In this document: piece by piece, positions 10,035-56,676 of the stretch | Layout of the letters: each line of letters opens with the position of its first letter | Position numbering within the stretch: the stretch's first letter is position 1 | Assembly (NCBI GenBank): GCA_035627595.1 | Contig: DASPLK010000001.1 | Location: 69,619 to 133,618 of the forward strand | Length of the DNA: 64,000 bases | From: Minisyncoccota bacterium | GTDB lineage: Bacteria; Patescibacteriota; Minisyncoccia; Phycocordibacterales; Phycocordibacteraceae | Direction: 5' to 3' | The notes under the pieces: generated by a model | The model's input: the letters and a program-made list of their open reading frames with translations, nothing else | Told to the model about the DNA's origin: nothing | The model's database searches: none | Position numbers and translations under genes: made by a program

Positions 10035-10036
10035 AG

Positions 10037-11488: not shown

Positions 11489-11497
11489 ACTCCCCTA

Positions 11498-13309: not shown

Positions 13310-13312
13310 ATG

Positions 13313-13945
13313 TTATGCGAAACGGATAGGGTTTTCATGCTCGCTCGGATTGAAAGAGCGGTATAGAAGCTCGATGATCTCCTCGGTACCAAGCGGCACG
13401 GCACGGACGCCGCTTCCCTGAAGCGCGCTTCCTACGAGCGCCATGCGCTGCTCAAGCTGCACACGAAATTGCACGAACTCATCCGTTCCTTCGCCAGTAG
13501 GCGCTGCACCGGCCTCCTTCTTTATGAACGGCAGTGCGCCAGAGACGGCAGTAACAGCAGCTGGGCTGTAGGGTACGACGACATAGAAGAGCTTCGTCAT
13601 AATGTCTGTTCCTTCTATGAATGAACTAATGAACTGCATGTACTCTCGAAGCTGGATGCGCATAAGCTCGGAGGACTGCTTGTCTGCGCGTTCCTCAAGA
13701 AGTGCGAGGTAAGGACGGATATCTATCTTTCTAGACTGTACGACTATTTCGACCGAGAAATCGAGCGTGTTGAGGAAGTTTTGGAAACCGCCTATGATAG
13801 CGCGCTGCTCATCCTCAGACTTAAGTGCGAAGTTCACTGATGAGCACATGAGAATACCGCGGTATCCTCCATCCTTAAGGATTACTACGCCGTTACGTAT
13901 TTCCTTAACCGGTACGAACTCTTGAGCTGCGCGTGCTGCGGGCAT
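13313..13945 (-). CDS. VirB4 N-terminal-like fragment (210 aa), separated from the ATPase ORF by a single in-frame TAA
   Basis: VPVKEIRNGVVILKDGGYRGILMCSSVNFALKSEDEQRAIIGGFQNFLNTLDFSVEIVVQS resembles the VirB4/TraC N-terminus; stop TAA at 13313-13315, then CAT, then ATG 13307-13309 in frame; combined about 813 aa, a typical VirB4 length. Confidence 0.5.
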   Translation of the reverse strand: MPAARAAQEFVPVKEIRNGVVILKDGGYRGILMCSSVNFALKSEDEQRAIIGGFQNFLNTLDFSVEIVVQSRKIDIRPYLALLEERADKQSSELMRIQLREYMQFISSFIEGTDIMTKLFYVVVPYSPAAVTAVSGALPFIKKEAGAAPTGEGTDEFVQFRVQLEQRMALVGSALQGSGVRAVPLGTEEIIELLYRSFNPSEHENPIRFA

Positions 13946-13947
13946 GA

Positions 13948-14361
13948 TTAAGAGGCGTTACTATCCTTAATATCCAAGGACCATGCGAGCTCATGGAGCT
14001 TGTTCTGCGAAAGCCCAAGCTTCTGTCTCGTTTCGACCGCAGGCGTAGGCGGGACAGGCATAGTCTGCACCTGAGTCTTCTTCTCTACCCTTTTCCAGAG
14101 GTATAGGCGGCTTCCAAGGTAATAATTAAAACCCGACTCGAGCACGTCGAGGAACGGTCGATTGTTTACCTTGTAAAACGCGAGCGCAAGCGTGAAAATC
14201 GCGAGCGGAATAGCAAGCGCGATGCCAATGATACGTGGGAGATAGAGTACGAGCACGGCGCAGAGACCAAAACCGCCAGCAACGTAAACAAACTGCTTGA
14301 TAGAAAGCGGGCCGAATACTTTCTCTTCGACCTCAATGAACTGTGGTACTTGGTACTCCAT
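13948..14361 (-). CDS. PrgI/VirB3-like small membrane protein
   Basis: 137 aa, two TM helices (FVYVAGGFGLCAVLVLYL; IGIALAIPLAIFTLALAFY), directly upstream of VirB4 as in Gram-positive-type T4SS. Confidence 0.5.
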   Translation of the reverse strand: MEYQVPQFIEVEEKVFGPLSIKQFVYVAGGFGLCAVLVLYLPRIIGIALAIPLAIFTLALAFYKVNNRPFLDVLESGFNYYLGSRLYLWKRVEKKTQVQTMPVPPTPAVETRQKLGLSQNKLHELAWSLDIKDSNAS

Positions 14362-14407
14362 TGCCTACATAGTATAGCAACACCCCGCAAGAAAGCGGGG
14401 TGTGCGT

Positions 14408-15127
14408 TTAAAATGGTTCGCGATACGGATCTGCCGCGTAGTCTTTCGTGAGCGGTGTGCGCTGCCCTTCTTCAGTCGGTAGGTTTGGCGGTGGCGGTGG
14501 CGGTTCCCACGCGGTGACTGGAGGAGGCGCTGGACGTTCGATCACCGGCTCCGGAACAGGCGGTGGCGGTGGCGGTGGCGCGGGAGGCTGTTGTGGAGCT
14601 TGGTACTGCAGCGGTGGCTGGGTGGTCATGTATGGCTGCGGCACAGCGGTAATTGATACCGGAACCCAGTATGTCTGTTGCTGAGCGCCTGGAATTGGTG
14701 GCGTATATACAGGCTGCGGCTGTTGCGGGACCTGATACTGAGGTGGTGCCTCTATTTGGGAAGGTGGAGAAACAGGACGTGGTGGTTCGGGGCGTCTCTC
14801 CGATTGCTCCTGCTCTTTTCGACGCAAGGGCTTGAATACCATCTCATTCACATCAGTAGTGAGTCCATTGATTGAAGGCTCAGGGATACCGGCTTCACGT
14901 AGAGAATCTCTAAACTCATCTGGTGTCTTTACTCCAAGCAGCATTTGAAGATACGCGCGTTCGAAATCCCCAGCCTGGTCAGCATGAAGACCGTATTTCT
15001 GCATGAGTTCGAGCGCAACACGGTCGCGCTCAGGGCTCATAACGAATTCCCGGATCGGTTCAGGTATCCGCAGCAGCGCCGTGGCAACTGCGTCATCGAC
15101 ATTGCTAAGCTGCTGAGGTTCATCCAT
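14408..15127 (-). CDS. proline-rich hypothetical protein (helical N-domain plus about 130 aa of P/Q-rich low-complexity sequence)
   Basis: ...APPPPPPPVPEPVIERPAPPPVTAWEPPPPPP; no TM segment; operon member. Confidence 0.5.
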   Translation of the reverse strand: MDEPQQLSNVDDAVATALLRIPEPIREFVMSPERDRVALELMQKYGLHADQAGDFERAYLQMLLGVKTPDEFRDSLREAGIPEPSINGLTTDVNEMVFKPLRRKEQEQSERRPEPPRPVSPPSQIEAPPQYQVPQQPQPVYTPPIPGAQQQTYWVPVSITAVPQPYMTTQPPLQYQAPQQPPAPPPPPPPVPEPVIERPAPPPVTAWEPPPPPPNLPTEEGQRTPLTKDYAADPYREPF

Positions 15128-15154
15128 ACCTCTATTGTATACGATGTGTGATCA

Positions 15155-17608: not shown

Positions 17609-17612
17609 AGCG

Positions 17613-19001
17613 CTATGTCCTACCGCACAGTTTTGCCTTTTCCGTCATCTGCATATATAGAGAGTCTCCTCCCTCACCGCTTGTGCGGCTTTCAGTTTGT
17701 GAGCGTGCAAGGTCGCTCGCAGTCGGCATCGTATTAGCCATGAGTTGCTGGTACTCAGTTGAGACCTCCTCAAGTGCTGCGATCTGGTTGCCGCCTGCGG
17801 CATTATTTGCCGCAGCAAGCTTGGTGGTGAGAGAGTCGATGCCTGCAACCGCTGCGTCGGCGCGTGCAATCGCTGCGGCCGACTCGGTAAGTACAGCTTG
17901 AACTTCGGAGTCGTTGGTACAACTTGCCGCGGCCTGCGCTGCGCCCTGAATCTTCTGCCAATTAGACTTATGCGTCTCCACTTGGCCGCGCTGGTTGCGT
18001 AGGGTCTGCGTGAAGGTTGCGTTCGCCCCCTGCGCGTTTGTCTGGTCAGAACTTGATGCGCGATCAATGTATGAAGAGCCGCCGCCGGAACTAGGCTGCG
18101 TAAGTCCGCCAAGTCCGCTGCCGCCAAGAATGTTCGAAGTAAGCTGTGCAAGAAGTGCGCCGACGATCTCATTGAACTCATCAGCAAGACCGAGCTGGTC
18201 AAGCTGGGATCCGAGGGTCTTCTCGAGTTGGCCCTCAATGACGGCGCCCGGGGTCTGAATCTCTCCGCCCGCACACTCACTTTCTGCGCCAGAGAGATCT
18301 ACAGTTTCATCGCCTGCTGATGAACTGGTAGTACACTCACCGCGCCAGGAAAGGAATCCCCTACCCCATTCAAGCTCGGTGCGACGTTGATCCTCTGCAC
18401 TTGAGACACGGCTGCCAAGCTCATGCTGTGCTTCATGGAGCGCACCAATAGGATTGTTCTGTGGATTTCTCCATGCCTCAATCCAAGCGTCCCATCCGCC
18501 CTTAGAGAAATCACCCGCAAGAAATGCGTTCGGATCTTCTGACACCTCATTAAGAGTGAAGCGGTTTGTGTTGAAATAAGAGCCTGAGCCGGTCGAGCGG
18601 AAGTAATCATCACGCACTGCCTGCACAATATCGTCCCTGAATGGTGAATCTATCTCGTTCCGGTCGCGCAACTCCTCAAAGAAATCGTCGGCAACACGGT
18701 CCCCTACCCTAAGCAAGTTACGGTTGAGGTCAGTTACATATGCAGGAGAGCCGTCAAAGCCTGAATTGATCCAGTTAACAGTGCTCTTGGTGACGGATTG
18801 GAGCGCAGACCGTGCCATGGTCCACGCGATCGCATCGAGACCACCTTCCTTTAGCATGTCCCAGCCCTGAGATGCCGCTGTTATGGTGTTCTGGATGAGG
18901 TTTATCGGGTCTTGAACGATAAACTGCGCATGCGTCGTGCGCGGTACGCTCGTAAAGAGAAGCGCTGCTACAAGAAGAAGTGCAAGTGGTGTGCGGATCA
19001 T
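17613..19001 (-). CDS. secreted hypothetical protein (462 aa), T4SS-associated
   Basis: signal peptide MIRTPLALLLVAALLFTSVPRTTHAQ; Gly/Ser-rich linker; C-terminal A/Q-rich helical region; 4 nt from the VirB6-like gene. Confidence 0.55.
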   Translation of the reverse strand: MIRTPLALLLVAALLFTSVPRTTHAQFIVQDPINLIQNTITAASQGWDMLKEGGLDAIAWTMARSALQSVTKSTVNWINSGFDGSPAYVTDLNRNLLRVGDRVADDFFEELRDRNEIDSPFRDDIVQAVRDDYFRSTGSGSYFNTNRFTLNEVSEDPNAFLAGDFSKGGWDAWIEAWRNPQNNPIGALHEAQHELGSRVSSAEDQRRTELEWGRGFLSWRGECTTSSSAGDETVDLSGAESECAGGEIQTPGAVIEGQLEKTLGSQLDQLGLADEFNEIVGALLAQLTSNILGGSGLGGLTQPSSGGGSSYIDRASSSDQTNAQGANATFTQTLRNQRGQVETHKSNWQKIQGAAQAAASCTNDSEVQAVLTESAAAIARADAAVAGIDSLTTKLAAANNAAGGNQIAALEEVSTEYQQLMANTMPTASDLARSQTESRTSGEGGDSLYMQMTEKAKLCGRT

Positions 19002-20026
19002 AGGCTTGGTACGGCAGCCGCCGCATCTTTAGCGCCCTTTACGAAGAAGTATCCGGTCGCACCCTGACCGATAGAGATGCCGTTGCCAGAGAAAAGTGTA
19101 TTAAGTTCTGCATACGCGCGCACCATCTGATCTGCTGCGCTTTTGTACTCGCTCATACCGAGCATGCCACGAAGTGGATCATTTTCTACGCTTGTCATGT
19201 TCTCGACGACAGTGCCCATGTATGCGATTGCATTTACAAAATTGAGGTGTGCCGACTGCGCTTCGTTTGGTACAGATATTTGAATGAGTGCAGCTGCAAT
19301 ATTTGTGTACGCACGAGAAATAGCACGCACTTGATTCATCGCACCCTCGTCTCCCTTCTGAACTGCTTCGGTGAAGTAGAAAAGTTCATTCTGGTCAGTG
19401 TCGACCGTGTTTTGTGTAAATGCTTCTTCCGCAGCGATAGCATATGCGCGGAGTGCCTCCTGTCCTGAACCTGAGACACGCACGCTTCCAAGTGAGTATG
19501 CCTTTACTGCTCGCTGCTTCGCGGCAAGGTCTGCGAGCGCATCCTGCATGAACGCATCTATCTCCTCTGCGGTCGGCGGGACGCCGCTTCGTGAGTTCAT
19601 GTAGTTTGTGAACAGGTCACGCGCAAATGCTCCGGTAACGGTATTGGCATCTGCATCAACGCCAGGGACGGTCACTTCGCCAGCAAGACCTGAAAGGTCG
19701 GTGCGGAACTTCGGCTCAAGGAGCCCTTGAGAGGAAGCTTCCCCATCGGTCATCTCAAGGCTGAACGAGTGCGCGTTATCAGGATCGGTTCCGTACAGTG
19801 ATTCCTGCCAATCCGGCAAGCCATCACTATCTGTGTCGCGCGAAGAGAACGCACGGAGAAGTTCCTCGGTTGACTCAGCGCCTGCGAGCTTTGAGGAAAA
19901 AATGGAAGGGCCCGAGAGCGCGTACGCGAGCGTCATCAATGCTCCCGTTATCACGAGCGAGCCGATGATGCGCAGGGTCCGCGTAGAAAGTGGAAGAGTA
20001 GGCACTATATATATGGTATCACGCAC
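18998..20026 (-). CDS. bitopic membrane protein (N-in TM plus about 290 aa ectodomain), possible VirB8-like component
   Basis: TM LRIIGSLVITGALMTLAYAL; the start at 20026 is GTG and the exact start is unsure; overlaps the next gene by ATGA. Confidence 0.45.
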   Translation of the reverse strand: MRDTIYIVPTLPLSTRTLRIIGSLVITGALMTLAYALSGPSIFSSKLAGAESTEELLRAFSSRDTDSDGLPDWQESLYGTDPDNAHSFSLEMTDGEASSQGLLEPKFRTDLSGLAGEVTVPGVDADANTVTGAFARDLFTNYMNSRSGVPPTAEEIDAFMQDALADLAAKQRAVKAYSLGSVRVSGSGQEALRAYAIAAEEAFTQNTVDTDQNELFYFTEAVQKGDEGAMNQVRAISRAYTNIAAALIQISVPNEAQSAHLNFVNAIAYMGTVVENMTSVENDPLRGMLGMSEYKSAADQMVRAYAELNTLFSGNGISIGQGATGYFFVKGAKDAAAAVPSL

Positions 20027-28919: not shown

Positions 28920-29480
28920 CTAGTTGCCACCCACGCACGCGCTCGCACTACTCCAGTAGTTCCAGCTCCCGTTTGTGCCTGAATACTTGTTCTTGCAATA
29001 CCCCGGCAATTCCCCAGTCTCATACATGCCTTCGTAGTATCCGCCGTCATTAACACCAGGACCTGTACTTGATTCAAGAGTTACGCCAAGCGCATACATC
29101 TGCTTCGTTCCAACCGACTTGTATAGGTATCTACGATTAGCAGGAGGTGTTCCTGTGTCGCGTGGCAATGATGACATGTACGGGCTTAGCGCCTCTTCAA
29201 GATCGCACCAACCATTGCTGTAGCCGCAATGGTTGAACGTTCCTGACGATTCGTGTGGAGTCATCGCGTAGTAGTAGACCTCGGGGGTGCCCGGGTACAC
29301 ACCATGGTCACTATAGTAGAGCGCAAGTGCTTTCTGCATCTGCTGTATCTCTTGAACTCGAGCTGCATCACGTGCCTTCGCGCGAGCAGAGTTTAAGGAC
29401 ACGAGTACGGTAGCTGAAAGTATGCCGATGATCGCAATGACAACGAGTAGCTCAATCAGAGTAAAGCCTCTGGATCTCAT
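28920..29480 (-). CDS. type IV pilin (prepilin with class III signal peptide)
   Basis: MRSRG|FTLIELLVVIAIIGILSATVLVSL N-methylation/cleavage motif; ATG verified at 29480; the track ORF start 29630 is a spurious extension. Confidence 0.7.
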   Translation of the reverse strand: MRSRGFTLIELLVVIAIIGILSATVLVSLNSARAKARDAARVQEIQQMQKALALYYSDHGVYPGTPEVYYYAMTPHESSGTFNHCGYSNGWCDLEEALSPYMSSLPRDTGTPPANRRYLYKSVGTKQMYALGVTLESSTGPGVNDGGYYEGMYETGELPGYCKNKYSGTNGSWNYWSSASACVGGN

Positions 29481-29535: not shown

Positions 29536-30327
29536 ATGCGCATCGTCTCTTGGAATGTTAACGGCATCCGCGCCGTACACCGCAAAGGTCTGTTCCTCCC
29601 TTTCCTTAAGGAATTAAAGCCTGACATCATTTGCCTTCAGGAAACAAAGGCCGAGCAGCACCAATCGGAAGTAGATCTCATGGGATATGAGGAATACTGG
29701 CACTCTGCCAAGAAAAAGGGCTACAGCGGCACAGCCATCTTCACGAAACAGGTCCCGGAGGACGTGCTGTTCGGCATGCCTGTGGACATAGCAGAAAAAT
29801 ATTCCCTTTCAGACGATAGCTATGGAGATCCAAATGAGGAGGGCCGCGTTATTGCCGCAGATATGGGCGATTTTTATGTCGTCAGCGTGTACACGCCTAA
29901 CGCCAAAGATGACCTCTCTCGCCTATCACTTCGCCACAAGCAGTGGGATCCGGCCTTCCTTGAGTACATGAAGAGGCTCGAGGCTGAAAAACCCGTTATT
30001 TTCTGCGGTGATTTGAATGTTGCACATACTGAGGACGATCTCGCGCGACCCAAGGAGAACAAGGGTAAGAAGGGATTTACCGATGAAGAGCGAGTAGGAA
30101 TCAATACTATTATCGATTCCGGCTTTGTTGACTCATACCGCCTATTTACTAAAGGAAACGGCCACTATACGTGGTGGAGCCATTTTGCACAGGCGCGAGC
30201 CCGCAATGTCGGCTGGCGTATCGATTATATTTTTGTATCGAAAAAGTTATCCACAAAGGTAAAGAAAGCAGAGATACACGATGACATTCTCGGGTCAGAT
30301 CACTGCCCCGTCTCAATTACTCTTTAA
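29536..30327 (+). CDS. xth: exodeoxyribonuclease III (AP endonuclease, EEP fold)
   Basis: MRIVSWNVNGIRA..., LQETK, ...GWRIDYIFVS...SDHCPV. Confidence 0.9.
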   Translation: MRIVSWNVNGIRAVHRKGLFLPFLKELKPDIICLQETKAEQHQSEVDLMGYEEYWHSAKKKGYSGTAIFTKQVPEDVLFGMPVDIAEKYSLSDDSYGDPNEEGRVIAADMGDFYVVSVYTPNAKDDLSRLSLRHKQWDPAFLEYMKRLEAEKPVIFCGDLNVAHTEDDLARPKENKGKKGFTDEERVGINTIIDSGFVDSYRLFTKGNGHYTWWSHFAQARARNVGWRIDYIFVSKKLSTKVKKAEIHDDILGSDHCPVSITL

Positions 30328-43055: not shown

Positions 43056-43164
43056 ACTTCCGATATTTAGTTGTATCGCCCGGGTTTCTTAAAAAGAAAG
43101 GCCCGCGGGAGCGGACATTTCAGATATTGGAAGGATACCATTCCTATATATAGTGTCAATGAAG

Positions 43165-43199
43165 AAATATTGACATATATAGGATGTAAGTCATTATAT
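43165..43199 (+). promoter_or_regulatory. candidate sigma70 promoter TTGACA-17-ATTATA overlapped by an inverted repeat GTCAAT-N8-ATTGAC
   Basis: in the AT-rich 450 bp nusA/pil intergenic region; the inverted repeat spans the -35 element. Confidence 0.4.
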
Positions 43200-43281
43200 A
43201 GACACTGCTTATGGGATAACACCCAGTCATCGAAACGATGGCGAAGCATAGCTCTTTGCCATCCTTGGGGGAAATATCATC

Positions 43282-43467
43282 ATGCAACGTTCCAATGACC
43301 GCGCGTCGGCTGAGGCTGATGATCATCGGGCCATCAACGGCGAGGTGCAGGCTGAAGGAAAGACCTCGAGCTTCTTTCCGATCCTCGGCATCGTTTTTCT
43401 CGGCGTCATCGCAATGACCGTGATGATCCTCGCGGGTCACCAACATCCGCAGCCTTTTCTCGGGTGA
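43282..43467 (+). CDS. small single-TM protein (61 aa), hypothetical
   Basis: SD GGGGGA 9 nt upstream of the ATG; TM FFPILGIVFLGVIAMTVMILAG; higher GC than neighbours. Confidence 0.45.
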   Translation: MQRSNDRASAEADDHRAINGEVQAEGKTSSFFPILGIVFLGVIAMTVMILAGHQHPQPFLG

Positions 43468-43588
43468 ACGATAGATCAAGACTCCAAGGAAACGCGCCCC
43501 AATGCTTCGGCAGCGGAGCGTGTTTTCTGTTTCATACACATATATAGGTACGAACGAAGTTCATGCGCTGCGTTATACTTTGTTGAGC

Positions 43589-45340
43589 ATGCAAGTTTCA
43601 GAGCGAGAGCTGAAGGAGTTCATCATCGATTCGGGACTTGTTGCCCGAAAGGACGTCGATGCTGCAGAGCAGGAAGCAAAGGCGCGGAAGCAATCCGTGG
43701 GCGACGTACTTGTTTCTCAGGGCTCCCTTTCTGAAGATGCGCTCCGCCGCATCAAAGCGTACGTACTCGGCATCCCATTTGTGAACCTGAAGGATAAAAA
43801 GATACCCTTCGAAGTGCTCTCTCTTATTCCTGAGCCGATTGCACGCACGCACAACATTGTCGCGTTCAGAAAAGATGGCGACACGCTTGAGGTCGCGATG
43901 CTTGATACTGAGGACCTTGTATCAATCGATTCGGTAAAGAAGAAGACACGGCTCAAGATTATGCCGCGCCTAACTGACGACGATTCGCTCAGAAACGTGC
44001 TTCTGCAGTATCAGAAGTCCCTAAAGGAAGAGTTCGGCGATCTTATTTCTACTGAAGCAGGGAAGCTCTCCTTGGTAAAAGACGGGGCAACCGACGAGGT
44101 ATCAGAGAAAGATCTTAAGAAGCTGGCGGAGGATCTGCCGATCGTCCGCATTATCGATACGCTCTTGCGGCACGCAATTATCCAAAACGCATCTGACATT
44201 CATATTGAGCCAGCTGAGCACGAAGTCATTGTGCGGTACCGCATTGACGGCATATTGCATGATGCGATGACACTCCCTAAAAATGCTGCGTCCGGTATCG
44301 TCGCGCGTATCAAAGTGCTCTCCAACTTGAAGTTGGATGAGAAGCGACTTCCGCAAGACGGACGCTTCAAGATGGAGACCGAGCGCGACAAGGTGTCGTT
44401 CCGCGTATCCCTGCTGCCGGTATATTTTGGCGAGAAAGTTGTCATGCGCCTCCTTAGGGAGAGCGGCGAAGGGTTTACACTCGAGGGTCTTGGCTTCCAT
44501 GGCGAGAATCTAGAGCGCATACATCATGCAACCAAGCAGACAACCGGCATCATTCTTGTATCAGGCCCAACCGGCTCCGGAAAGACGACAACCCTCTATA
44601 CGATTCTCGATATTCTCAATACGCCTGACGTAAACATCTCCACCATTGAGGATCCGATCGAGTACCAGATGAAGCGGGTGAACCAAACGCAGGTGAATCC
44701 GGCGATCGGCTTCTCGTTCGCCAATGGACTCCGTGCGCTTCTTAGACAGGACCCGAACATCATCATGGTCGGCGAGATTCGTGATAGCGAGACGGCAGCG
44801 CTTGCGATTAACGCGGCACTCACCGGACACATCGTGCTCTCAACTATTCACACGAACTCAGCGACCGGCGCAATTCCGCGTCTCATGGATATGGGCGTTG
44901 AGCCGTTTCTTCTAGTTTCCACGCTTCGCGCGGTTGTGGGCCAGCGACTTGTTCGCCGTCTTTGCGATGATAAGGAGGAGTATGCGCTCGATAAGATTGA
45001 ACGAGAGAAGGTCGCATCCCCAGAGCATTTTGATGCAGCATTGAAAGCCCTTACCGACGAGAAGCTTGTAAAGGCAGGAACTAAGATTGATGCACTGCCG
45101 TTCTATAAGCCAAAGGAGGGGGGTGATTGCGAAGAGGGATACAAGGGCCGTATGGGTATCCATGAGGTGCTCGCCGTTTCTCCTTCTATTCGCGAACTCA
45201 TCCTTCACGGAGCGTCTGGTGATCAGATTGAAGCGCAAGCAAGAAAAGAAGGAATGCTTACCATGCTCGAAGATGGCATTTATAAGGCATCGAGAGGCAT
45301 CACCTCACTAGAGGAGGTATTGCGCGCTGTTTCTGAATAA
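43589..45340 (+). CDS. pilB: type IV pilus assembly ATPase PilB/GspE family
   Basis: GSPII_E N-domain, Walker A GPTGSGKTTTLY, Asp box, Walker B IMVGEIRD, His box, tetracysteine-like CDDKEEYALD...C; ATG at 43589. Confidence 0.9.
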   Translation: MQVSERELKEFIIDSGLVARKDVDAAEQEAKARKQSVGDVLVSQGSLSEDALRRIKAYVLGIPFVNLKDKKIPFEVLSLIPEPIARTHNIVAFRKDGDTLEVAMLDTEDLVSIDSVKKKTRLKIMPRLTDDDSLRNVLLQYQKSLKEEFGDLISTEAGKLSLVKDGATDEVSEKDLKKLAEDLPIVRIIDTLLRHAIIQNASDIHIEPAEHEVIVRYRIDGILHDAMTLPKNAASGIVARIKVLSNLKLDEKRLPQDGRFKMETERDKVSFRVSLLPVYFGEKVVMRLLRESGEGFTLEGLGFHGENLERIHHATKQTTGIILVSGPTGSGKTTTLYTILDILNTPDVNISTIEDPIEYQMKRVNQTQVNPAIGFSFANGLRALLRQDPNIIMVGEIRDSETAALAINAALTGHIVLSTIHTNSATGAIPRLMDMGVEPFLLVSTLRAVVGQRLVRRLCDDKEEYALDKIEREKVASPEHFDAALKALTDEKLVKAGTKIDALPFYKPKEGGDCEEGYKGRMGIHEVLAVSPSIRELILHGASGDQIEAQARKEGMLTMLEDGIYKASRGITSLEEVLRAVSE

Positions 45341-45427
45341 TTTGATTTGCGCGGTTTGCGTTGTATAGTCATTTTGGGTTGTATCCCGTGTGTAGGCTGT
45401 TCTATGCGCGTATAAGGGGAATTAAGC

Positions 45428-45793
45428 ATGAAAGGTGTAACTCTTGAAAGTGTGGTGACTGCAATGGTCGCCGCTGGGCTTCTGGGCTGGGTCGCTTCTG
45501 ACATCGTGGGCCTGACCAACATCTGGCACCTGTTGCCGGATGTTTGGGACAACGCATTCATCGCGAGTCTGCTGGCGTCCGTCGTTGCTTTGGGCGGCCC
45601 GAGAGTTTTCGACAAGCTCTTGGCCTGGTGGGCGATCATCATCGTTCCGCCCGTTACGGCGGCCGTCGCCGTGATCAACGGCATTGCTGTGCCGTCAGGC
45701 GTCTTGATCACGATCGTCATGACCTTCGCGGTTTGCGCCGGCGTCCTCGTGGCCAACCACTGGTTTGGCCGAAAGGAAGCCATTGCGGCCTGA
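45428..45793 (+). CDS. polytopic small membrane protein (121 aa), hypothetical, between pilB and pilC
   Basis: SD AAGGGGA 7 nt upstream; 3-4 TM helices; about 60% GC with strong GC3 bias; hairpin GGCCGGG...CCGGCC plus T-rich run at 45814-45846 downstream. Confidence 0.55.
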   Translation: MKGVTLESVVTAMVAAGLLGWVASDIVGLTNIWHLLPDVWDNAFIASLLASVVALGGPRVFDKLLAWWAIIIVPPVTAAVAVINGIAVPSGVLITIVMTFAVCAGVLVANHWFGRKEAIAA

Positions 45794-45870
45794 CTTCTCG
45801 TCACTGCGCTCAAGGCCGGGTCTCATTGGGATCCGGCCTTTCGCTTTGTCTGCGTGCTAAGATTTTCGTA

Positions 45871-47085
45871 ATGAAGTTCCGCGTAATCCTTAAGAGAGAA
45901 GACGGCAGTGAAGAAAAGCGTGTCATGGATGCTGCTTCGAAGTTCGTGGTGTACGAAACTGCGGAAAGAGAGCGTGCGACCGTAATCTCTATAGAGGAGG
46001 ATGCAAGTGGAAGTATTTTTGAGAAGCTCTCGAGCGTGTCCTTTGGGGTTGGCATAAATACGATGCAGCGCATTACGTTCACAAAGAACCTCGCTGCAAT
46101 GCTTTCTGCGGGGCTTACGCTCTCGCGTGCGCTCTCTGTCATTAACCGTCAGTCCACCAATCCTTCCTTAAAGAAAATAGTCATCGACCTTGAGGGAAAG
46201 GTAAAAGAGGGTAGTGGATTCCATGAGGCGCTTGCCGCACATCCAAAGGTTTTCTCTAAACTTTTTATTGCCATGACCAAGGCAGGTGAAGAGTCGGGCA
46301 CCTTGTCTGAATCATTGACGAACGTTGCGCGTCAGATGGACCGCTCATACACGCTACAGAAGAAGATCCAGGGCGCGATGATCTATCCCGCAGTCATTCT
46401 AGTCGCGATCGTCGTCATTGGTGTCCTCATGATGATGTTCGTTGTGCCGACCCTATCTGCCACCTTTACCTCGATGAATGTGGAGCTTCCAACCTCGACC
46501 AAGATCATCATCGCGGTCTCGGACTTTATGAAAGAGCACATGGTCGTAACGCTTGTCCTGCTCGTCGCATCATTTGTCGGGCTCTTCCTTTTTATGCGCT
46601 CGAAGCTTGGAAGTGCACTTATCCTCTGGGGAGCGCTCCGTACGCCGGTCATTGGCGAACTGGTCAAGGAGACGATGAGCGCCCGCGCTGCACGCGCGCT
46701 TTCCTCGCTCCTCTCTTCTGGTGTTGAGATGCTTACCGCTATCTCTATCGCACGTGAAGTTGTGGGCACTAAGATGTTTGCGGACGTACTTGTAGAGGCA
46801 GAGGCGCGTGTGAAAAAGGGAGAACAGCTTTCTGCCGCGTTTGCGGACCATCCGAAGCTCTACCCGGTGTTCGTCGCCGATATGATCGCGGTGGGTGAGG
46901 AGACGGGAAAAGTCTCCGACATGCTCGCGCAGGTTGCGACCTACTATGAAGTGGACGTTGAAGACCGCACCAAGGATCTCTCAACAATTATCGAGCCAAT
47001 CCTGATGCTCTTGATCGGTCTCTTCGTCGGCATCTTCGCAGTCTCCATGATGGCGCCGATCTACTCGCTCTCGTCTCAAATCTAA
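45871..47085 (+). CDS. pilC: type IV pilus platform protein PilC/GspF (two T2SF domains)
   Basis: duplicated GspF pattern (FTKNLAAMLSAGLTLSRAL...; SARAARALSSLLSSGVEMLTAI...), 3 TM; ATG at 45871; the track ORF 45544 is a spurious extension. Confidence 0.85.
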   Translation: MKFRVILKREDGSEEKRVMDAASKFVVYETAERERATVISIEEDASGSIFEKLSSVSFGVGINTMQRITFTKNLAAMLSAGLTLSRALSVINRQSTNPSLKKIVIDLEGKVKEGSGFHEALAAHPKVFSKLFIAMTKAGEESGTLSESLTNVARQMDRSYTLQKKIQGAMIYPAVILVAIVVIGVLMMMFVVPTLSATFTSMNVELPTSTKIIIAVSDFMKEHMVVTLVLLVASFVGLFLFMRSKLGSALILWGALRTPVIGELVKETMSARAARALSSLLSSGVEMLTAISIAREVVGTKMFADVLVEAEARVKKGEQLSAAFADHPKLYPVFVADMIAVGEETGKVSDMLAQVATYYEVDVEDRTKDLSTIIEPILMLLIGLFVGIFAVSMMAPIYSLSSQI

Positions 47086-47112
47086 AACGCGCGTGCGCTA
47101 TCATAGGAAGGT

Positions 47113-48828
47113 ATGCACCGTCCGATGCGCGGAGTCTCACTCGTCGACGTGGTCGTCGGCACCTTCCTTGTACTCGTCGTGTTCCTCGCGCTCTTTGGTC
47201 TCTTGCGTGCTTCCATACTTGTATCATCGGTCGCTAAGTCACGCGCGACCGCAACCTCTATTGCGAGCAGTCAGATCGAGTATGTGCACTCGCTCTCTTA
47301 TGATTCCGTCGGCACTGTTGGCGGCATCCCGCCGGGCGTGGTGCCACAGTATGCGACCACGACGCATAATGGCATCGACTTCGTTACGCGCACGACTATT
47401 CAGTATGTCGATGACCCTGCAGATGGCACGGACGCCTCTGATGTGACCGGCATCACCACCGACTACAAGCGGGTGCGCGTTGCTGTTACGTACACTGTGA
47501 ACTATCGGAGTCGGGAGGTGGCGCTCATTACAAATGTCGTGCCACCAGGACTTGAGACCTCAACCGGCGGTGGAACACTAAAGATTGATGTCGTGAGCGC
47601 GACCGGCATGCCAGTCGCAGGTGCGTCAGTCCGTATTGAGAACGATGACGTATCGCCCGCGGTCGACGTGACCACATTCTCCAATGCGCTTGGTGTCGTG
47701 TATCTTCCGGGAGCAGCAACTTCCACTGCGTACCGCGTATCGGTTCTCAAGACCGGTTACTCGAGCGCGCAGACATATGCACGCGATGCGATCAACCAGA
47801 ATCCGACGCCAGGCTACCTCACTGTTGCCAAGGATCAGACGACGACCGGCACATTCGCAATCGATACACTTGCAACGCTCGTCCTCCGTACGTTCTCACC
47901 TATCGAGCGTGCAACCACTACCGATGCGTTCGATGATGCATCTGGGATTGCGCAGAGTACAAATGTTTCCGTTGGTTCCGGCGCGCTCGAGCTATCAGGA
48001 ACGGTAGGCACCTATCCAAGCACAGGAAGTGCGCGAGGTACGGCGGTTTCACCCGAGCACTTGGCAGCATGGGGAGACATCTCTGCGCAAATCTCTGTGC
48101 CTACGAACACGACTGCGCGCGTGCAAGTTACCGATAGTGCAGGAACACCCCTTCCGGATGCAGTTCTCCCTGGGAACGGAACCGGTTTCACCAACTTTCC
48201 GGTATCGCTCTCGAATGTTTCCACGACCACGTACCCGACACTCGCGCTACTTGCGTCGCTTACTTCAAGCGACGCAAGTACGACACCTGCGGTATTAGCT
48301 TGGTCGCTATCGTACGACGAAGGGCCGCTCCCGCTTCCAGACGTTGGCTTCTCTCTTGTGGGCACTAAGACTATCGGTTCCACGGGAGCGGGTGAGCCGC
48401 TTCATAAGAGCGAAGTATCAGACGTAACCGGTGCGGATGGTACTTGGAATGGAGAGCTTGAATGGGACGTGTACACGCTTTCAATCGAAGGATACGACGT
48501 GGTTGATGCGTGCGGCGCGCCGCCGTTCACCCTTCCGCCGGGCACCACGAGCGACAATCGGCTCATGCTTGGTGACGAAAGCGCGCACATGATTCTCATA
48601 TCTGTGCGTGACACATCGGGCGCGGCTATTGAAGGAGCATCAGTCACGCTCTCGCAAAGCGGTTATGCCTCGACAAAGGTGACCGGAGCATGCGGCACTG
48701 CGTACTTCGGGGACCTCATCAGTTCCACGGCGTATACCGTTGAGGTTGTCAAAAGCGGATACGCCTTGTCGACGCATACGCCGGTCTCGGTATCGGGGAA
48801 GACGTTCTATGCCGCAACACTTGAGTAG
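47113..48828 (+). CDS. large pilin-like protein (571 aa) with a prepilin-type N-terminus and beta-sandwich (CarboxypepD_reg-like) repeats
   Basis: MRG|VSLVDVVVGTFLVLVVFLALFGLL (G then hydrophobic helix, D at +5); repeated ...GASVRIENDDVS...VYLPG...YRVSVLKTGY... modules. Confidence 0.5.
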   Translation: MHRPMRGVSLVDVVVGTFLVLVVFLALFGLLRASILVSSVAKSRATATSIASSQIEYVHSLSYDSVGTVGGIPPGVVPQYATTTHNGIDFVTRTTIQYVDDPADGTDASDVTGITTDYKRVRVAVTYTVNYRSREVALITNVVPPGLETSTGGGTLKIDVVSATGMPVAGASVRIENDDVSPAVDVTTFSNALGVVYLPGAATSTAYRVSVLKTGYSSAQTYARDAINQNPTPGYLTVAKDQTTTGTFAIDTLATLVLRTFSPIERATTTDAFDDASGIAQSTNVSVGSGALELSGTVGTYPSTGSARGTAVSPEHLAAWGDISAQISVPTNTTARVQVTDSAGTPLPDAVLPGNGTGFTNFPVSLSNVSTTTYPTLALLASLTSSDASTTPAVLAWSLSYDEGPLPLPDVGFSLVGTKTIGSTGAGEPLHKSEVSDVTGADGTWNGELEWDVYTLSIEGYDVVDACGAPPFTLPPGTTSDNRLMLGDESAHMILISVRDTSGAAIEGASVTLSQSGYASTKVTGACGTAYFGDLISSTAYTVEVVKSGYALSTHTPVSVSGKTFYAATLE

Positions 48829-48832
48829 CTAT

Positions 48833-49420
48833 ATGACCCACCGCGCTTTTACGCTCATTGAGACCCTGGTCGTTGTCGCTGTTGTGGCAATCGTTGGACT
48901 CGCGCTGCATGCGATCATCCTTCGTTTCTATCAAGCGAACACGTATGTGTTACAGGGAACGGCTGCGGTCAATAGTGCGCGTAACGGTGTCACGACCCTA
49001 TCCTCAAATATTCGTGAGGTGACCTATAGTGACGATGGAGCATACCCGCTGAGCCAGGCAGCGACCTCCTCGGTCACGTTTTATGCAGACGTCGACAAGG
49101 ATGGTGGCGTGGAACGTGTGCGCATGTACCTCATCGAGGGCACCTTTTATCGCGTCGTTACAAACGCAGCAGGTAGCCCGCCAACCTACATGGGCCAGGC
49201 ACCCGCGACGACGACAATTGCGACCTATGTCGCAAACGGTACCTCAACGCCGCTCTTTAGATACTTCAACGCAAGTGGTACAGAGCTAACCGGCTCGGTC
49301 GATACGACAGAAGTCGCATCCATACTTACGACTCTTATGGTCGACATCAACCCGCATCGCGCGCCAGACATCTACACCCTAACCCAGAGCGCGACACTCC
49401 GTAACTTGCGGAACGAGTAA
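48833..49420 (+). CDS. type IV (pseudo)pilin
   Basis: MTHRA|FTLIETLVVVAVVAIVGLAL canonical prepilin N-terminus; ATG at 48833, 5 nt after the upstream stop. Confidence 0.7.
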   Translation: MTHRAFTLIETLVVVAVVAIVGLALHAIILRFYQANTYVLQGTAAVNSARNGVTTLSSNIREVTYSDDGAYPLSQAATSSVTFYADVDKDGGVERVRMYLIEGTFYRVVTNAAGSPPTYMGQAPATTTIATYVANGTSTPLFRYFNASGTELTGSVDTTEVASILTTLMVDINPHRAPDIYTLTQSATLRNLRNE

Positions 49421-49421
49421 T

Positions 49422-50849
49422 ATGAAACCTATGACCCCTCAGCCGCGCGGCTACCTCATGCTCCTTACAATCGTCTTCGGCGCGATCTTCCTCGGCGTTC
49501 TCGGTTCGCTTTCAGGGTACGTACTCTCGCAAAACGAAGCGCAGGTGCGCGCAACAGGGGATGCCAAAGCGTTCTCCATGGCGGAAGCCGGACTCGAGTA
49601 CTACCACTGGTACCTCGCGCACAACCCGGGCGACATTACGCACGGCACCGGGCAGCCCGGGCCCTATGTCATTCCATACAACGACCCGGAAGGCGGAGAG
49701 GCTGGAGAGATAGCGCTTGAGGTGACCGGCAATCTTTCATGCGGGCAGACCACTTCGATTGATATACGCTCGACCGGTATACCAAGTGATGGATCAGGTG
49801 CAGAAAAGACTGTTGTCGGCCGCTACGCGCAGCCGACAGTCGCACAATTCTCGTATGTGCTTAACGACAGTGTCTGGGCAGGTGAGGACCGTGTCATCAA
49901 TGGTCCCTACCATAGCAATGGAGGCATTCGCATGGACGGCACCGCGAATGCGCCGGTCACAAGCTCACTCTCTACATGGCTGTGTACGTCATCATTCGGC
50001 TGTTCACCGAACCAGACGAAAAATGGTGTGTGGGGAAATGGTTCCAATCAGGAGCTCTGGAGCTACCCGGTGCCGCAGGTTGACTTCAGCGGCATCGCTG
50101 CAGACTTCTCAACTCTAAAGACGTACGCGCAGGCCGACGGCATATACCTTCCGCGCTACAGTTCGGGTAATAGTAATGGAGCAGCGTACTGGAGGGGTTA
50201 TCACCTCATCTTTAACGCGAACAATACGGTAACGGTGCGTCGTGTCTCTTCGACCGTCTCTATGGATGTCGTGCCGGTCAACTCCGCGGACCCGGACTGG
50301 GATCGTGCACGGATACAGAACGAAACCAACTACGCGACGTACTCCATACCAGAGGACTGCGGACTCATCTATGTCGAAGACAATGTCTGGGTAGAGGGAA
50401 CGATATCGGACAAGGTAACTGTGGTCGCGGCTAATGTAATCAATACGGGTGTTGAGCCGAGCGCATACCTCAAAGGAAACATCACTTACTCCACCACCAA
50501 CGGCACGGCCGGCCTTGCGCTCATTGCTGAGAAGAATGTGCTTATAGTGCCCGACTCGCCACACAACATGACTCTCAACGGCATCTTCATCGCACAGGGC
50601 GGAGCGTTTGGAAGAAACCTCTACGGATGCCCGAGTTCGTACGAACCGCGTGGCACTCTCACAATTCTTGGTACGACAGTGTCGAACAAGCGCACCGGTA
50701 CTAAATGGGAGAACGGGTGTGGTTGGAGAGGAGACGCTGGATACCAGACGCGCGTGGATGCGTATGACAGAAAGCTCGCGACCGACCCGCCACCGTTTAC
50801 ACCCACTGTCTCTTCCGACTACACCTTCGTCGACTGGCGAGAAGAATAG
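49422..50849 (+). CDS. PilX-like minor pilin or pilus tip-associated protein (475 aa)
   Basis: N-terminus MKPMTPQPRG|YLMLLTIVFGAIFLGVLGSL, a pilin-like hydrophobic segment without E5; beta-rich remainder; start 2 nt after the previous stop. Confidence 0.45.
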   Translation: MKPMTPQPRGYLMLLTIVFGAIFLGVLGSLSGYVLSQNEAQVRATGDAKAFSMAEAGLEYYHWYLAHNPGDITHGTGQPGPYVIPYNDPEGGEAGEIALEVTGNLSCGQTTSIDIRSTGIPSDGSGAEKTVVGRYAQPTVAQFSYVLNDSVWAGEDRVINGPYHSNGGIRMDGTANAPVTSSLSTWLCTSSFGCSPNQTKNGVWGNGSNQELWSYPVPQVDFSGIAADFSTLKTYAQADGIYLPRYSSGNSNGAAYWRGYHLIFNANNTVTVRRVSSTVSMDVVPVNSADPDWDRARIQNETNYATYSIPEDCGLIYVEDNVWVEGTISDKVTVVAANVINTGVEPSAYLKGNITYSTTNGTAGLALIAEKNVLIVPDSPHNMTLNGIFIAQGGAFGRNLYGCPSSYEPRGTLTILGTTVSNKRTGTKWENGCGWRGDAGYQTRVDAYDRKLATDPPPFTPTVSSDYTFVDWREE

Positions 50850-50871
50850 GCGTCCGTGCTAGCATGGACGT

Positions 50872-55438: not shown

Positions 55439-55861
55439 ATGCATTTCACACTCTATGCCGATGGCGGATCGCGTGGAAACCCAGGACCTGCAGGGGCCGG
55501 CGCGGTTGTGTTTGATCAGGGTGGCAAACGCGTCGTCGAGGTAGCGGATTTTCTCGGAGTTGCGACGAATAACATAGCTGAGTACGAGGCGGTCTTGCGT
55601 GGGCTTGTCGCACTTAAGGATGCGTACCCTGAGGGTTTCTTTATGCATGCAACGGTCACCGTGAAGATGGATAGTAAGCTTGTCATTGAGCAGATGAAAG
55701 GCGCATATCGCGTGAAGCATCCAAACCTCATTCCGCGGCACCTGGAGATTAAGAATCTTATTGCCCGATACTTCTCAACAGTGGAGTTCGTACATGTGCC
55801 TAGAGCGCAGAACGCGGATGCAGATGCGCTTGCCAATAAAGCGATGGACGCTGGCAGATGA
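55439..55861 (+). CDS. rnhA: ribonuclease HI
   Basis: MHFTLYADGGSRGNPGPAGAGAV..., TNNIAEYEA, ...DSKLVIEQM..., RAQNADADALAN; TATACT 9 nt upstream of the ATG. Confidence 0.8.
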   Translation: MHFTLYADGGSRGNPGPAGAGAVVFDQGGKRVVEVADFLGVATNNIAEYEAVLRGLVALKDAYPEGFFMHATVTVKMDSKLVIEQMKGAYRVKHPNLIPRHLEIKNLIARYFSTVEFVHVPRAQNADADALANKAMDAGR

Positions 55862-56676
55862 GCGTAAGGCGCGCTTTTATGAGGAAATTTCACTACCTTA
55901 CCGCAAGCGCCGCAATCTTAATAGGTATTGCACTCATATTTAGTTGGATAATTGAATCCTTTCCATCCCCCGAACAGAAGGCACATGATTTAATTGTCGA
56001 TTTAAATGCAAAAGCCGGTCTTAAATCACAAATAGAAATATCTGCTGACGGAAATTCCAAAGAGACATATCGCGTTCAAAGAGTTGTGGATGGCGATACT
56101 CTTGTAGTTGATATAAGCGGCTCCGAAATAACGTTGCGGTTGATTGGTGTGAATACACCCGAAACAGTCGATCCTAGGAAGCCAGTGGAGTGTTTTGGAA
56201 AGGAAGCATCTGCACAAACTACTTCGTTGCTCGCAGGTCAGAATGTTCTACTAGGATTCGATAGTTCTCAAGGCAATTGGGATAAATATAATCGCCTGCT
56301 TACATATGTGTACCGCGAGGATGGTCTGTTCATCAACAAGTATCTAATCGAAAACGGGTATGGACACGAATACACATACAACACGCCATATAAGTTTCAA
56401 GAGGAATTTGATGAGGCAGAGGAATATGCTCGCGAAAATAAAAAAGGTTTATGGGCACCTGAAGCGTGTAAGGAGTTCGTAGAAACGCAAAACACAGGCA
56501 AAAGGACAGAGCCTATCGAAACAGACGGTCTTAGTTATACTTGCGCGGTAAATTCTTACAACTGCTCAGACTTTGAGAACAAAGCACAAGCTCAGAATAT
56601 TTATCTAGCGTGTGGCGGCTTGCAAGCTGATGTGCACAAATTAGATGCAGATAGAGATGGTGAAGCGTGCGAATAG
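55858..56676 (+). CDS. membrane-anchored thermonuclease (SNase) with a C-terminal Excalibur Ca-binding domain
   Basis: N-terminal TM; SNase core VVDGDTLVV...RLIGVNTPE...; Excalibur DADRDGEACE; AT-rich relative to neighbours. Confidence 0.8.
   Translation: MSVRRAFMRKFHYLTASAAILIGIALIFSWIIESFPSPEQKAHDLIVDLNAKAGLKSQIEISADGNSKETYRVQRVVDGDTLVVDISGSEITLRLIGVNTPETVDPRKPVECFGKEASAQTTSLLAGQNVLLGFDSSQGNWDKYNRLLTYVYREDGLFINKYLIENGYGHEYTYNTPYKFQEEFDEAEEYARENKKGLWAPEACKEFVETQNTGKRTEPIETDGLSYTCAVNSYNCSDFENKAQAQNIYLACGGLQADVHKLDADRDGEACE

Follow-up and report, generated by a model that had tools for sequence, protein, structure and literature searches.

The locus analysed here, which lies in a window of 64 kb (the whole stretch of DNA described), belongs to an ultrasmall bacterium of the Paceibacteria (CPR) and is the ordinary type IV pilus core, which is widely conserved. 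It contained pilB (nt 43589–45340), pilC (nt 45871–47085), and three tightly packed pilin-like genes (p571, p195, and p475; nt 47113–50849), all on the + strand. The order nusA / pilB / pilC / p571-p195-p475 / tpiA-pgk was shared by about 30 related genomes, indicating that the pilus locus is a vertically inherited core and not an oddity. The overall gene identities, conservation of the prepilin motifs, synteny, and predicted folds are established, and there is good reason to regard the locus as encoding the core components of a type IVa-like pilus machine in a monoderm-like CPR bacterium (Candidatus Paceibacterota). The type IV pilus module claimed in the preliminary description was borne out by the domain matches of PilB and PilC and by the pilin-like trio.

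The ORF at nt 43502–45340 encoded PilB, a type IVa-type pilus extension ATPase of 583 aa when read from the start at nt 43589 that was backed by about 30 orthologues, with an N-terminal MshEN/GSPII_E_N domain and the Walker A motif GPTGSGKT. The protein matched T2SSE (E = 4e-126) and MshEN (2e-14) of Pfam and T4aP PilB of NCBIfam (7e-163, with the alignment covering 2–562 of 564), and shared a median identity of 81% with 30 relatives. The product of pilC (start at nt 45871) was a GspF/PilC-type inner-membrane platform protein of 404 aa, which matched T2SSF of Pfam in two stretches (4e-55) and GspF and PilC of NCBIfam (5e-89 and 4e-77, respectively), with a median identity of 66%. The NCBIfam scores of GspE/GspF were close to those of PilB/PilC, such that a type IV pilus and a T2SS-like pseudopilus are inseparable by sequence alone.

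The spacer between nusA and pilB contained an inverted repeat (nt 43142–43184), TCCTATATAT / ATATATAGGA, around two back-to-back TTGACA boxes, with perfect arms of 10 nt at nt 43142–43151 and 43175–43184. These arms corresponded to the left arm and the first of two right-arm copies of an inverted repeat kept in the closest relatives, whose loci (L001 and L027) retained CCTATATATAGTGT...ACACATATATAGG. A promoter-like site was located at nt 43170–43197 (10/12 matches), such matches not being enriched in the region over shuffled sequences (6 found versus 5.8 expected). Located 9 nt before the pilB ATG was a -10-like box, GCGTTATACT (nt 43570–43579, + strand), and some 30 loci had GCG[CT]TATACT or TGATATACT 6–15 nt ahead of pilB; this box is probably the pilB promoter, whose transcript would be leaderless or nearly so. 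An extended -10-like box, TGCTAAGAT (nt 45855–45863, + strand), preceded the pilC ATG by 7 nt, and TGCTA[CAG]GAT was found at an equal distance before pilC in about 27 loci. A third -10-like box, GCGCTATCAT (nt 47095–47104, + strand), was situated 8 nt before the p571 ATG; GCG[YG]TATCAT was present there in most close-clade loci, whether the end of pilC was 28 nt or 3.3 kb upstream. This is probably the promoter of the three-pilin unit, and neither p195 nor p475 had a -10 box of its own upstream. Since conserved -10-like boxes occurred 7–9 nt before the starts of pilB, pilC, and p571, and unrelated cargo genes interrupted the spacing of pilB, pilC, and the pilin trio in relatives, we infer that the three would each be transcribed from the box just before the start codon; this suggests separate, probably leaderless transcripts, not the single operon behind one promoter that had been proposed earlier.

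Two small membrane ORFs had also been counted as parts of the module, an assignment that did not hold, as both were lineage-specific and not conserved. The ORF at nt 43282–43467 (+ strand; 61 aa, one hydrophobic helix, with a GGGGG Shine-Dalgarno-like sequence upstream) is doubtful. The codon score favoured its frame (+0.17 bits/codon); it had no match in Pfam or NCBIfam and none by tblastn in 44 loci, and it sat in a segment of about 380 nt missing from L001 and L027. The ORF at nt 45428–45793 (+ strand; 121 aa), polytopic and hydrophobic, was an ORFan at the insertion-prone junction between pilB and pilC, having no homologue besides itself (NCBI VEA92_00710) among 5.8 billion proteins. Its codon score preferred the + frame over the antisense frame. 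At this position, the Logan gene caller picked an antisense ORF. Small hydrophobic + strand ORFs, none with robust homology to the 121-aa ORF, occupied the pilB-pilC position in loci L003, L006, L009–L011, L020, L021, and L023, while L001, L004, and L027 had no small ORF there. The putative 121-aa protein may be a member of the pilus machine, as a candidate only.

Among the ORFs of at least 100 aa scanned in the window, no Pfam match to PilM/N/O/Q, PilT, or PilD (Peptidase_A24) was observed, nor were these proteins encoded in the 8.6 kb to its left (72 kb covered in total). In about 30 relatives, the 10 kb flanking pilC on each side was likewise devoid of PilM/N/O/T, and the compactness of the pilus locus, lacking secretin and alignment genes, was kept. 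The absence of these genes noted in the preliminary description thus stood for the window and its left flank but not as a genome-wide statement: PilC, PilM, and PilO are reported from about 88% of the MAGs of small-celled Patescibacteria (Paceibacteria and Microgenomatia), as well as from each of the three genomes chosen as representatives in that study (PMC8672522), and PilM/N/O/T/D families are reported to be widespread in CPR (PMC6744442). Because PilM and PilO are reported from most small-celled Patescibacteria, the absence of alignment genes is a property of the locus, not of the genome. Secretin-less type IV pili are already known in CPR, those with PilB/PilC but without PilQ having been documented (PMC6744442).

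A self-sufficient minimal machine, in which PilB and PilC would act alone without PilM/N/O and PilT as in the ComG pilus of Firmicutes, and in which lineage-specific small membrane proteins at the pilB/pilC junction might replace the alignment proteins, would agree with the absence of PilM/N/O/T in the window, left flank, and relatives and with the recurrence of small hydrophobic ORFs between the two genes. It is nevertheless unlikely, given the wide occurrence of the PilM/N/O/T/D families mentioned above, the spread of T4P genes over four loci in TM7x, the lack of small ORFs in the closest relatives and of robust homology among those present, and a PilB that is full-length and of the T4aP type, unlike the short ComGA. 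In the type IVa-like machine favoured here, the genes for the prepilin peptidase and, if present, for PilM/N/O and a retraction ATPase would most probably lie elsewhere in the genome. The bulk subunit would also be encoded elsewhere, and the candidate filament subunit is a GspG-like prepilin of 186 aa (nt 28920–29480, - strand; RG/FTLIELLVV) located 14 kb away. This prepilin, previously pointed out beside xerC, is real, as judged from its matches to N_methyl (5e-9) and T2SSG (7e-4) of Pfam and GspG of NCBIfam (1e-14), and is a putative major pilin.

The three consecutive pilin-like genes described earlier were confirmed, with measured gaps of 4 nt (p571-p195) and 1 nt (p195-p475), and each product had a conserved prepilin-type N-terminal motif, a class-III signal, in about 30 orthologues and a predicted pilin helix. 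The first gene (nt 47113–48828, + strand) encoded p571, a modular minor pilin of 571 aa with the N-terminus MRG/VSLVD; the motif RG/[MVT]S[LFM][IV]D was kept across the orthologues, the +5 residue being D in this genome and E among distant relatives. Its AF2 model (pLDDT 82.5) comprised an alpha1 helix of about 50 residues, a small four-stranded sheet, and four Ig-like/CnaB-like beta-sandwich domains, in agreement with the sandwich repeats previously ascribed to it, with two CarboxypepD_reg matches in Pfam and Foldseek matches to TIE, BcpA, RrgB, and SpaA (E 1e-12 to 1e-5). The second gene encoded p195, a canonical minor pilin (RA/FTLIETLVVV) similar to PilV/PilW or GspI/GspJ; its extent was read as 195 aa (nt 48833–49420, + strand), in place of a 226-aa ORF. 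The motif [RK][GA]/FTL[IV]E was conserved in its orthologues, whose profile matched type IV pilin N-termini in PDB, and p195 itself matched N_methyl of Pfam, the GFxxxE domain of NCBIfam, and, weakly, PilV and GspI. Of p571 and p195, one may be PilV/GspI-like and the other PilW/GspJ-like, either way round.

The third gene (nt 49422–50849, + strand) encoded p475, a tip pilin of the ComZ/PilX/GspK type with 475 aa, six invariant cysteines, and the N-terminal motif PRG/YLMLL, which, like those of GspK and PilX, lacked an acidic +5 residue and was conserved across about 30 orthologues of p475. Homologues numbered 1848 (955 clusters at 50% identity). The AF2 model (pLDDT 82.8, pTM 0.77) showed an alpha1 helix of 59 residues, the pilin sheet, and a large beta-solenoid, so that in both p571 and p475 an N-terminal helix of 50–59 residues was followed by beta-sheet. 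By Foldseek, the Thermus tip pilin ComZ was the best PDB match (6qvi; full length, with E 5e-10 and probability 1.0), ahead of solenoids of ice-binding proteins, although the global TM-score was low (0.31), with an rmsd of about 16 Å and 11–12% identity, and the PDB search by sequence profile revealed no link to ComZ or GspK. The PilX-like protein of the earlier description is PilX/GspK-like and, more precisely, ComZ-like.

By analogy with GspI-J-K and PilV-W-X, we infer a tip-complex role for p571-p195-p475, which would be co-transcribed and translationally coupled: the hexameric ATPase PilB would drive the PilC platform, by which processed pilins would be drawn from the membrane and polymerised, and the minor-pilin set would prime assembly and become the tip. 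Lacking a charged residue at +5 and bearing a bulky beta-solenoid, p475 would cap the filament like ComZ and GspK, and p571 would contribute an Ig-like stalk. Saccharibacteria are known to have large non-canonical tip pilins of the PilX type (PMC11623550), the architecture of p475 has been reported for cyanobacterial PilX (bioRxiv 2026.02.12.705559), and ComZ has a GspK-like pilin domain and binds a neighbouring GspI-like pilin (PMC6561018). A T2SS-like pseudopilus, that is, not a long surface pilus but a piston by which hydrolases or other proteins would be pushed across the cell wall, is very improbable: the Ig stalk and solenoid tip modules suit an exposed filament, pili have been seen on CPR cells, T4P have been shown genetically in Saccharibacteria, the PilB N-terminal region aligned full length to T4aP PilB, and GspC, GspD, GspL, and GspM were not found, even though GspE, GspF, and GspG models scored near or above the pilus models, the minor pilins were GspI/J/K-like, and a pseudopilin-like character is shared by ComZ and the minor pilins of Thermus.

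The tip of the type IV pilus is most likely a generic plug and an adhesin whose target is conserved, with DNA as the leading specific candidate ligand. Capture of DNA by the pilus is possible, and a dedicated competence-type pilus, whose p475/p195 tip would bind extracellular DNA like Thermus ComZ/PilA2 and either pass it to ComEC or leave it to be degraded by a membrane-anchored nuclease, feeding a nucleotide-auxotrophic cell, may be entertained tentatively. ComZ, the top structural match of p475, binds DNA and is required for transformation, whereas piliation does not depend on it (PMC6561018), although the DNA-contact lysines of ComZ were not mappable onto p475. With a median identity of 65%, on par with PilC and Pgk, p475 was as conserved as housekeeping enzymes, which suits a universal over a host-specific ligand; however, the beta-solenoid PilX proteins of cyanobacteria, proposed as tip plugs, include a motility/EPS subfamily. 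In at least 16 relatives recJ-RNaseH-comEC lay 5–6 kb downstream of the pilin trio, and ComEC together with T4P is widely reported in CPR, but, because housekeeping DNA is syntenic throughout the region, this linkage may be functionally meaningless; in this genome a membrane-anchored SNase-Excalibur nuclease (nt 55858–56676), which itself would suit the degradation route, filled the comEC slot, and the window had no comEC. In Saccharibacteria, the T4P functions demonstrated are host binding and twitching, and comEC was non-essential. The DNA-capture route proposed earlier thus gained from the ComZ-like fold and from comEC in most relatives, but is still speculative.

Compared with known systems, the locus resembles the T4P of CPR (Meheust et al. 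2019) and T4P-1 and T4P-2 of Saccharibacteria TM7x in having PilB and PilC but no PilQ, pilin genes dispersed among several loci, large accessory domains on the minor pilins, and tip pilins of the PilX type whose signal peptides are non-canonical. In TM7x, however, PilM/N/O adjoin pilB/pilC and PilT/PilD are in locus 1, whereas none is linked here; the accessory domains are jelly-roll and beta-propeller in TM7x, whereas this locus has a beta-solenoid of the ice-binding-protein type and an Ig-like stalk, and its tip pilin shows high conservation, in contrast to the fast-diverging pilins of Saccharibacteria. ComZ-PilA2 of Thermus thermophilus (PDB 6QVI) shares with p475 the GspK-like pilin with a non-acidic position 5, the large triangular beta-solenoid of ice-binding-protein type, and a gene directly following small pseudopilin-like minor pilins. 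The differences are that the identity is 11–12% without a sequence-profile link, that Thermus is a diderm with PilQ, that p475 has six invariant cysteines, and that DNA binding by p475 is putative.

The PilX-PilV-PilW-FimT sets of cyanobacteria are similar in that core minor pilins are encoded together and PilX carries a beta-solenoid, proposed as a tip plug in organisms without PilY1, but this locus has no FimT/FimU/GspH-like fourth member and its p571 has a long Ig-like stalk. The GspI-GspJ-GspK tip of T2SS is likewise encoded by three consecutive genes, the last protein lacking E5 and having an inserted domain, with presumed priming; the GspK insertion is alpha-helical, unlike that of p475, GspC/D/L/M are absent here, and GspI and GspJ are much smaller than p571. 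The ComG operon of the monoderm Firmicutes similarly lacks PilM/N/O and PilT and has its peptidase encoded elsewhere, but ComGA is short, without N-terminal domains, the major pilin gene comGC directly follows comGB, and the minor pilins are small. In the modular pilins of Streptococcus sanguinis, the grafted modules are vWA (PilB) and lectin (PilC), instead of the four CnaB/transthyretin-like sandwich domains of p571; as in p571, these functional domains are placed C-terminally on a pilin module.

pilB (nt 43589-45340) encoded a 583-aa extension ATPase with an N-terminal GSPII_E_N/MshEN domain (Pfam T2SSE, 4e-126; MshEN, 2e-14), which matched the NCBIfam PilB model across positions 2-562 of 564 (7e-163) with a score under the equivalog cut-off; pilC (nt 45871-47085) encoded a 404-aa PilC/GspF platform protein with two T2SSF domains (Pfam T2SSF, 4e-55, two stretches). 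They were followed by three tandem pilin-like genes, here called p571 (nt 47113-48828), p195 (nt 48833-49420) and p475 (nt 49422-50849) after the lengths of their products, 571, 195 and 475 aa. The flanks of the locus were housekeeping genes, with clpP, ppa and nusA upstream on the minus strand and tpiA and pgk downstream. With the ATPase and the platform unambiguous and the prepilin motifs conserved, the compact module of pilB, pilC and three pilin-like genes proposed in the preliminary description is real. The p475 protein was identical to hypothetical protein VEA92_00730 of a Candidatus Paceibacterota MAG, and the 44 related loci, taken from GTDB species genomes, came nearly all from Paceibacterota, Parcubacteria or Kaiserbacteria MAGs.

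The three downstream proteins began with a short basic leader, G (or A) and a long hydrophobic stretch. In p195 the motif was the canonical [RK][GA]/FTL[IV]E (slash, prepilin cleavage site); in p571 it was RG/[MVT]S[LFM][IV]D, position +5 being D in its own clade and E in distant relatives. The p475 motif, PRG/YLMLL, had G at -1 and L at +5, followed by a conserved AEAGLEYY; a non-acidic +5 residue is likewise found in GspK and ComZ. The class III signal peptide pattern, with G at -1, a hydrophobic helix and E at +5, was canonical in p195 and also in the GspG-like prepilin encoded about 14 kb away next to xerC (nt 28920-29480, minus strand); p571 and p475 shared the G at -1. These N-termini were conserved in about 30 orthologues of each of the three proteins, and the lack of a cleavable prepilin-type N-terminus, which would have spoken against pilins, did not arise. 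Homologues numbered 820 for p571, some of them annotated as "autotransporter adhesin" or "PulG", and 1848 for p475 in a large protein collection, the latter family comprising 955 clusters at 50% identity. Profile searches from p475, p571 and p195 against solved structures returned only pilin N-termini, for p195, and no GspK or ComZ match.

Structure prediction for the two large proteins gave, in both models, a pilin N-helix with large accessory domains. In the AF2 model of p475 (pLDDT 82.8, pTM 0.77), an N-terminal helix of 59 residues was followed by a four-stranded sheet and a large domain rich in beta structure. Its best PDB matches in Foldseek were three chains of Thermus thermophilus ComZ (E 5e-10 to 2e-8; full-length alignments, probability 1.0), and beta-solenoids of ice-binding proteins ranked next. 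The global TM with ComZ was only 0.31, so the agreement lies in the domains and not in how they are oriented to one another. In ComZ, a solenoid of the ice-binding-protein type is inserted into a GspK-like pilin; the protein binds DNA and the neighbouring GspI-like PilA2, and has been proposed to cap the competence pilus (PMC6561018); cyanobacterial PilX, which shares this architecture, forms competence and motility/EPS subfamilies of proposed tip plugs (bioRxiv 2026.02.12.705559). The model thus predicts for p475 the same combination of a GspK-like pilin fold with a large triangular beta-solenoid. As ComZ was not named together with Patescibacteria by any paper in the searched literature, this Paceibacteria family may not have been assigned to the ComZ type before; the architecture and system of the locus are already known. 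Six cysteines of p475 were invariant, and its residues 159-173 (INGPYHSNGGIRMDG) showed full conservation. The model is least confident over this stretch, which could thus bind a ligand or metal or else form a disulfide-stabilised loop. In the p571 model (pLDDT 82.5), a helix of 50 residues and a small sheet preceded four beta-sandwich domains that resembled the CnaB/Ig-like domains of Gram-positive surface proteins, making p571 a predicted modular pilin in the sense applied to Streptococcus sanguinis PilB.

The gene order nusA, pilB, pilC, p571, p195, p475, tpiA, pgk was kept in about 30 genomes, with median identities to the window of 81% for PilB, 66% for PilC, 65% for p475, 64% for Pgk, 62% for TpiA, 55% for p571 and 52% for p195. 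Conserved order and identity levels together indicate that the locus is core and vertically inherited, and its compactness is a stable property in this clade. The pilB/pilC and pilC/p571 junctions held 0-4.4 kb of unrelated cargo in the relatives, where they were insertion hot spots (L005, nt 5624-10001; L007, 7995-10001; L017, 11212-14569; L022, 11212-13152; L020, L023 and L028, about 11210-12150). The cargo included glutathionylspermidine synthase, ion channels, a DUF350 protein, a kinase-like AAA protein and a TMEM175-type channel, which ruled out hidden pil genes in these inserts.

Among window ORFs of at least 100 aa, a Pfam scan found no PilM, PilN or PilO, no secretin domain (PilQ) and no Peptidase_A24 (PilD), and no PilT-length paralogue was seen in the window, as stated in the preliminary description. 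The 8.6-kb left flank also lacked PilM/PilN/PilO, a PilT-length paralogue and Peptidase_A24, none of pilM/N/O/Q being matched just outside the window on that side, and in about 30 relatives PilM/PilN/PilO were absent from the 10 kb flanking pilC on each side. A single further T2SSE protein was seen, a 556-aa PilB/GspE-like ATPase with MshEN, about 3.2 kb left of the window. It was not of the short PilT type and lay isolated between tsaE/polA and ruvB (nt 5466-7136 of L046, the locus reaching into the left flank), with no adjoining platform or pilin gene. At the window's own left end, a YebC/TACO1-like ORF of only 185 aa overlapped the ruvC ORF by about 100 nt (nt 113-670 and 570-1127); its best Pfam stretch covered only positions 2-55 of the 160-position second/third-domain model, and it could be a truncated gene or a frameshift. 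In CPR bacteria, PilB, PilT, PilC, PilM, PilN, PilO and PilD have been reported as widespread and PilQ not, the secretin-less state being a documented rule (PMC6744442), and about 88% of the MAGs of small-celled Patescibacteria carry PilC/PilM/PilO (PMC8672522).

Both the promoter-like site and the inverted repeat described ahead of the module exist, but the picture of a single promoter serving one operon is changed by the -10 boxes, the spacer comparison and the cargo inserts. The nusA-pilB spacer was only 190 nt in the closest relatives (L001 and L027), which lacked a segment of about 380 nt (nt 43163-43540) containing a 61-aa ORF. A copy of the right arm (ACATATATAGG) of the inverted repeat conserved upstream of pilB stood at either end of this segment, which looks like the product of an insertion or duplication. 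A -10-like box was conserved 6-15 nt 5′ of pilB in about 30 genomes (9 nt in the window, 43570-43579), and equivalent boxes lay 7-9 nt 5′ of pilC (45855-45863), p571 (47095-47104) and tpiA (about 50855-50863), all at the same positions in loci L001-L029, with the consensus forms GCGYTATACT, TGCTAMGAT and GCGYTATCAT; no equivalent was found 5′ of p195 or p475. As pilB and pilC also had no Shine-Dalgarno sequence, the closeness of these boxes to the starts suggests that leaderless transcripts are widespread in this lineage. Judged from conservation, pilB, pilC and p571-p195-p475 are best read as three separate units, each probably leaderless. GCGYTATMMT was rejected as a general promoter motif (3 window matches versus 1.0 expected; 7 of 100 shuffles reached 3), the support for the boxes being cross-genome conservation, not enrichment. 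Several relatives had a TetR-family regulator gene, absent in the window, directly 5′ of pilB (L020, nt 6982-7623; likewise between nusA and pilB in L009, L011, L022 and L023), and its product possibly regulates the pilus genes in those genomes.

For the two small membrane ORFs, the 61-aa one with one hydrophobic helix (nt 43282-43467) and the polytopic 121-aa one between pilB and pilC (nt 45428-45793, annotated at NCBI), codon statistics favoured the plus-strand frames. Neither had a tblastn match in the 44 loci, a search of 5.8 billion proteins with the 121-aa ORF returned itself alone, and iterated HMM searches among ORFs of the pilB/pilC junction gave no link to its positional analogues. 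It was weakly similar to one small hydrophobic ORF from the same junction in other genomes, and the closest relatives had no such ORF there. A place for the two as conserved parts of the pilus machine was rejected as unproven; they are regarded as putative, lineage-specific additions.

A use of the pilus for DNA capture, with p475 as the receptor, is a tentative reading that we consider rather doubtful. It draws on the predicted ComZ-like fold, the DNA-contact lysines of ComZ itself being K98 and K233, and on the slow evolution of p475, which keeps the pace of housekeeping enzymes and so fits a ligand of universal kind. The genes recJ, RNase H and comEC lay 5-6 kb 3′ of the pilin trio in at least 16 relatives, but this linkage is weak evidence because the whole region is syntenic, and in the window the comEC slot was taken by a membrane-anchored SNase-Excalibur nuclease (nt 55858-56676). 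Solenoid PilX proteins, moreover, serve motility too (bioRxiv 2026.02.12.705559), and the CPR pilus roles demonstrated so far are host binding and twitching (PMC11623550). The slot itself, between RNase H and superoxide dismutase, held comEC (DUF4131 and Competence domains; e.g. L048, nt 403-1848; L007, 18769-20199; L010, 19378-20814) in 16 or more related genomes, one of them a strain-level relative whose RNase H was 90% identical; it was empty in L021 and held an unrelated small gene in L019, and comEC was undetected anywhere in the 64 kb of the window. The exonuclease beside the distant pilin (nt 29536-30327) was discarded as a surface nuclease, since its Exo_endo_phos domain begins at residue 4, leaving the product without a signal peptide and probably cytoplasmic. 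Far less probable is a wider scenario, to which we give little credence, in which Kaiserbacteria-like Paceibacteria would use a minimal type IVa-derived pilus (PilB, PilC and pilins, without PilM/N/O or PilT) mainly as a nucleic-acid scavenger with a strongly conserved ComZ-like cap as DNA receptor, the linked ComEC channel having given way to a surface nuclease in lineages like the present one, and DNA import to extracellular digestion. A monoderm-type T4SS operon (nt 7923-20026, minus strand; VirB4/TraG P-loop, 11498-13309; PrgI/VirB3-like, 13948-14361; VirB2/T4SS pilin-like, 9147-10034) lay beside the replication origin genes yidC, rnpA, dnaA and dnaN, in agreement with the published CPR pattern, and no relaxase was seen.

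A central part in host attachment and nucleic acid acquisition by ultrasmall CPR bacteria is attributed to type IV pili, and, to our knowledge, experimental work on CPR type IV pili concerns Saccharibacteria only. For the much larger Paceibacteria group, the present analysis defines a conserved core of PilB, PilC and a three-member tip set, presents p475 as a slowly evolving, putatively ComZ-like cap and a concrete candidate for ligand or DNA binding, and suggests that each unit has its own promoter and probably a leaderless transcript. Current views are not overturned. p475 and p571 offer testable targets for biochemical work and a basis for annotating, with the help of structure, thousands of proteins that now appear as hypothetical or under the mistaken label "autotransporter adhesin".

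Most likely, the locus encodes the core assembly machinery of a type IVa-like pilus and the minor pilins that prime it and form its tip; genes for the filament subunit, for the peptidase and for any proteins of alignment or retraction would lie elsewhere. T4P genes of TM7x are spread across four loci (PMC11623550). In the ComG competence pilus, the ATPase ComGA is short and the major pilin gene comGC directly follows comGB, whereas here PilB has 583 aa with N-terminal domains, the ComGA model covering only residues 191-456, and a 571-aa modular pilin follows pilC. Type II secretion systems, in turn, possess the GspD secretin and a GspC/L/M platform, none of which had a Pfam match in the window.
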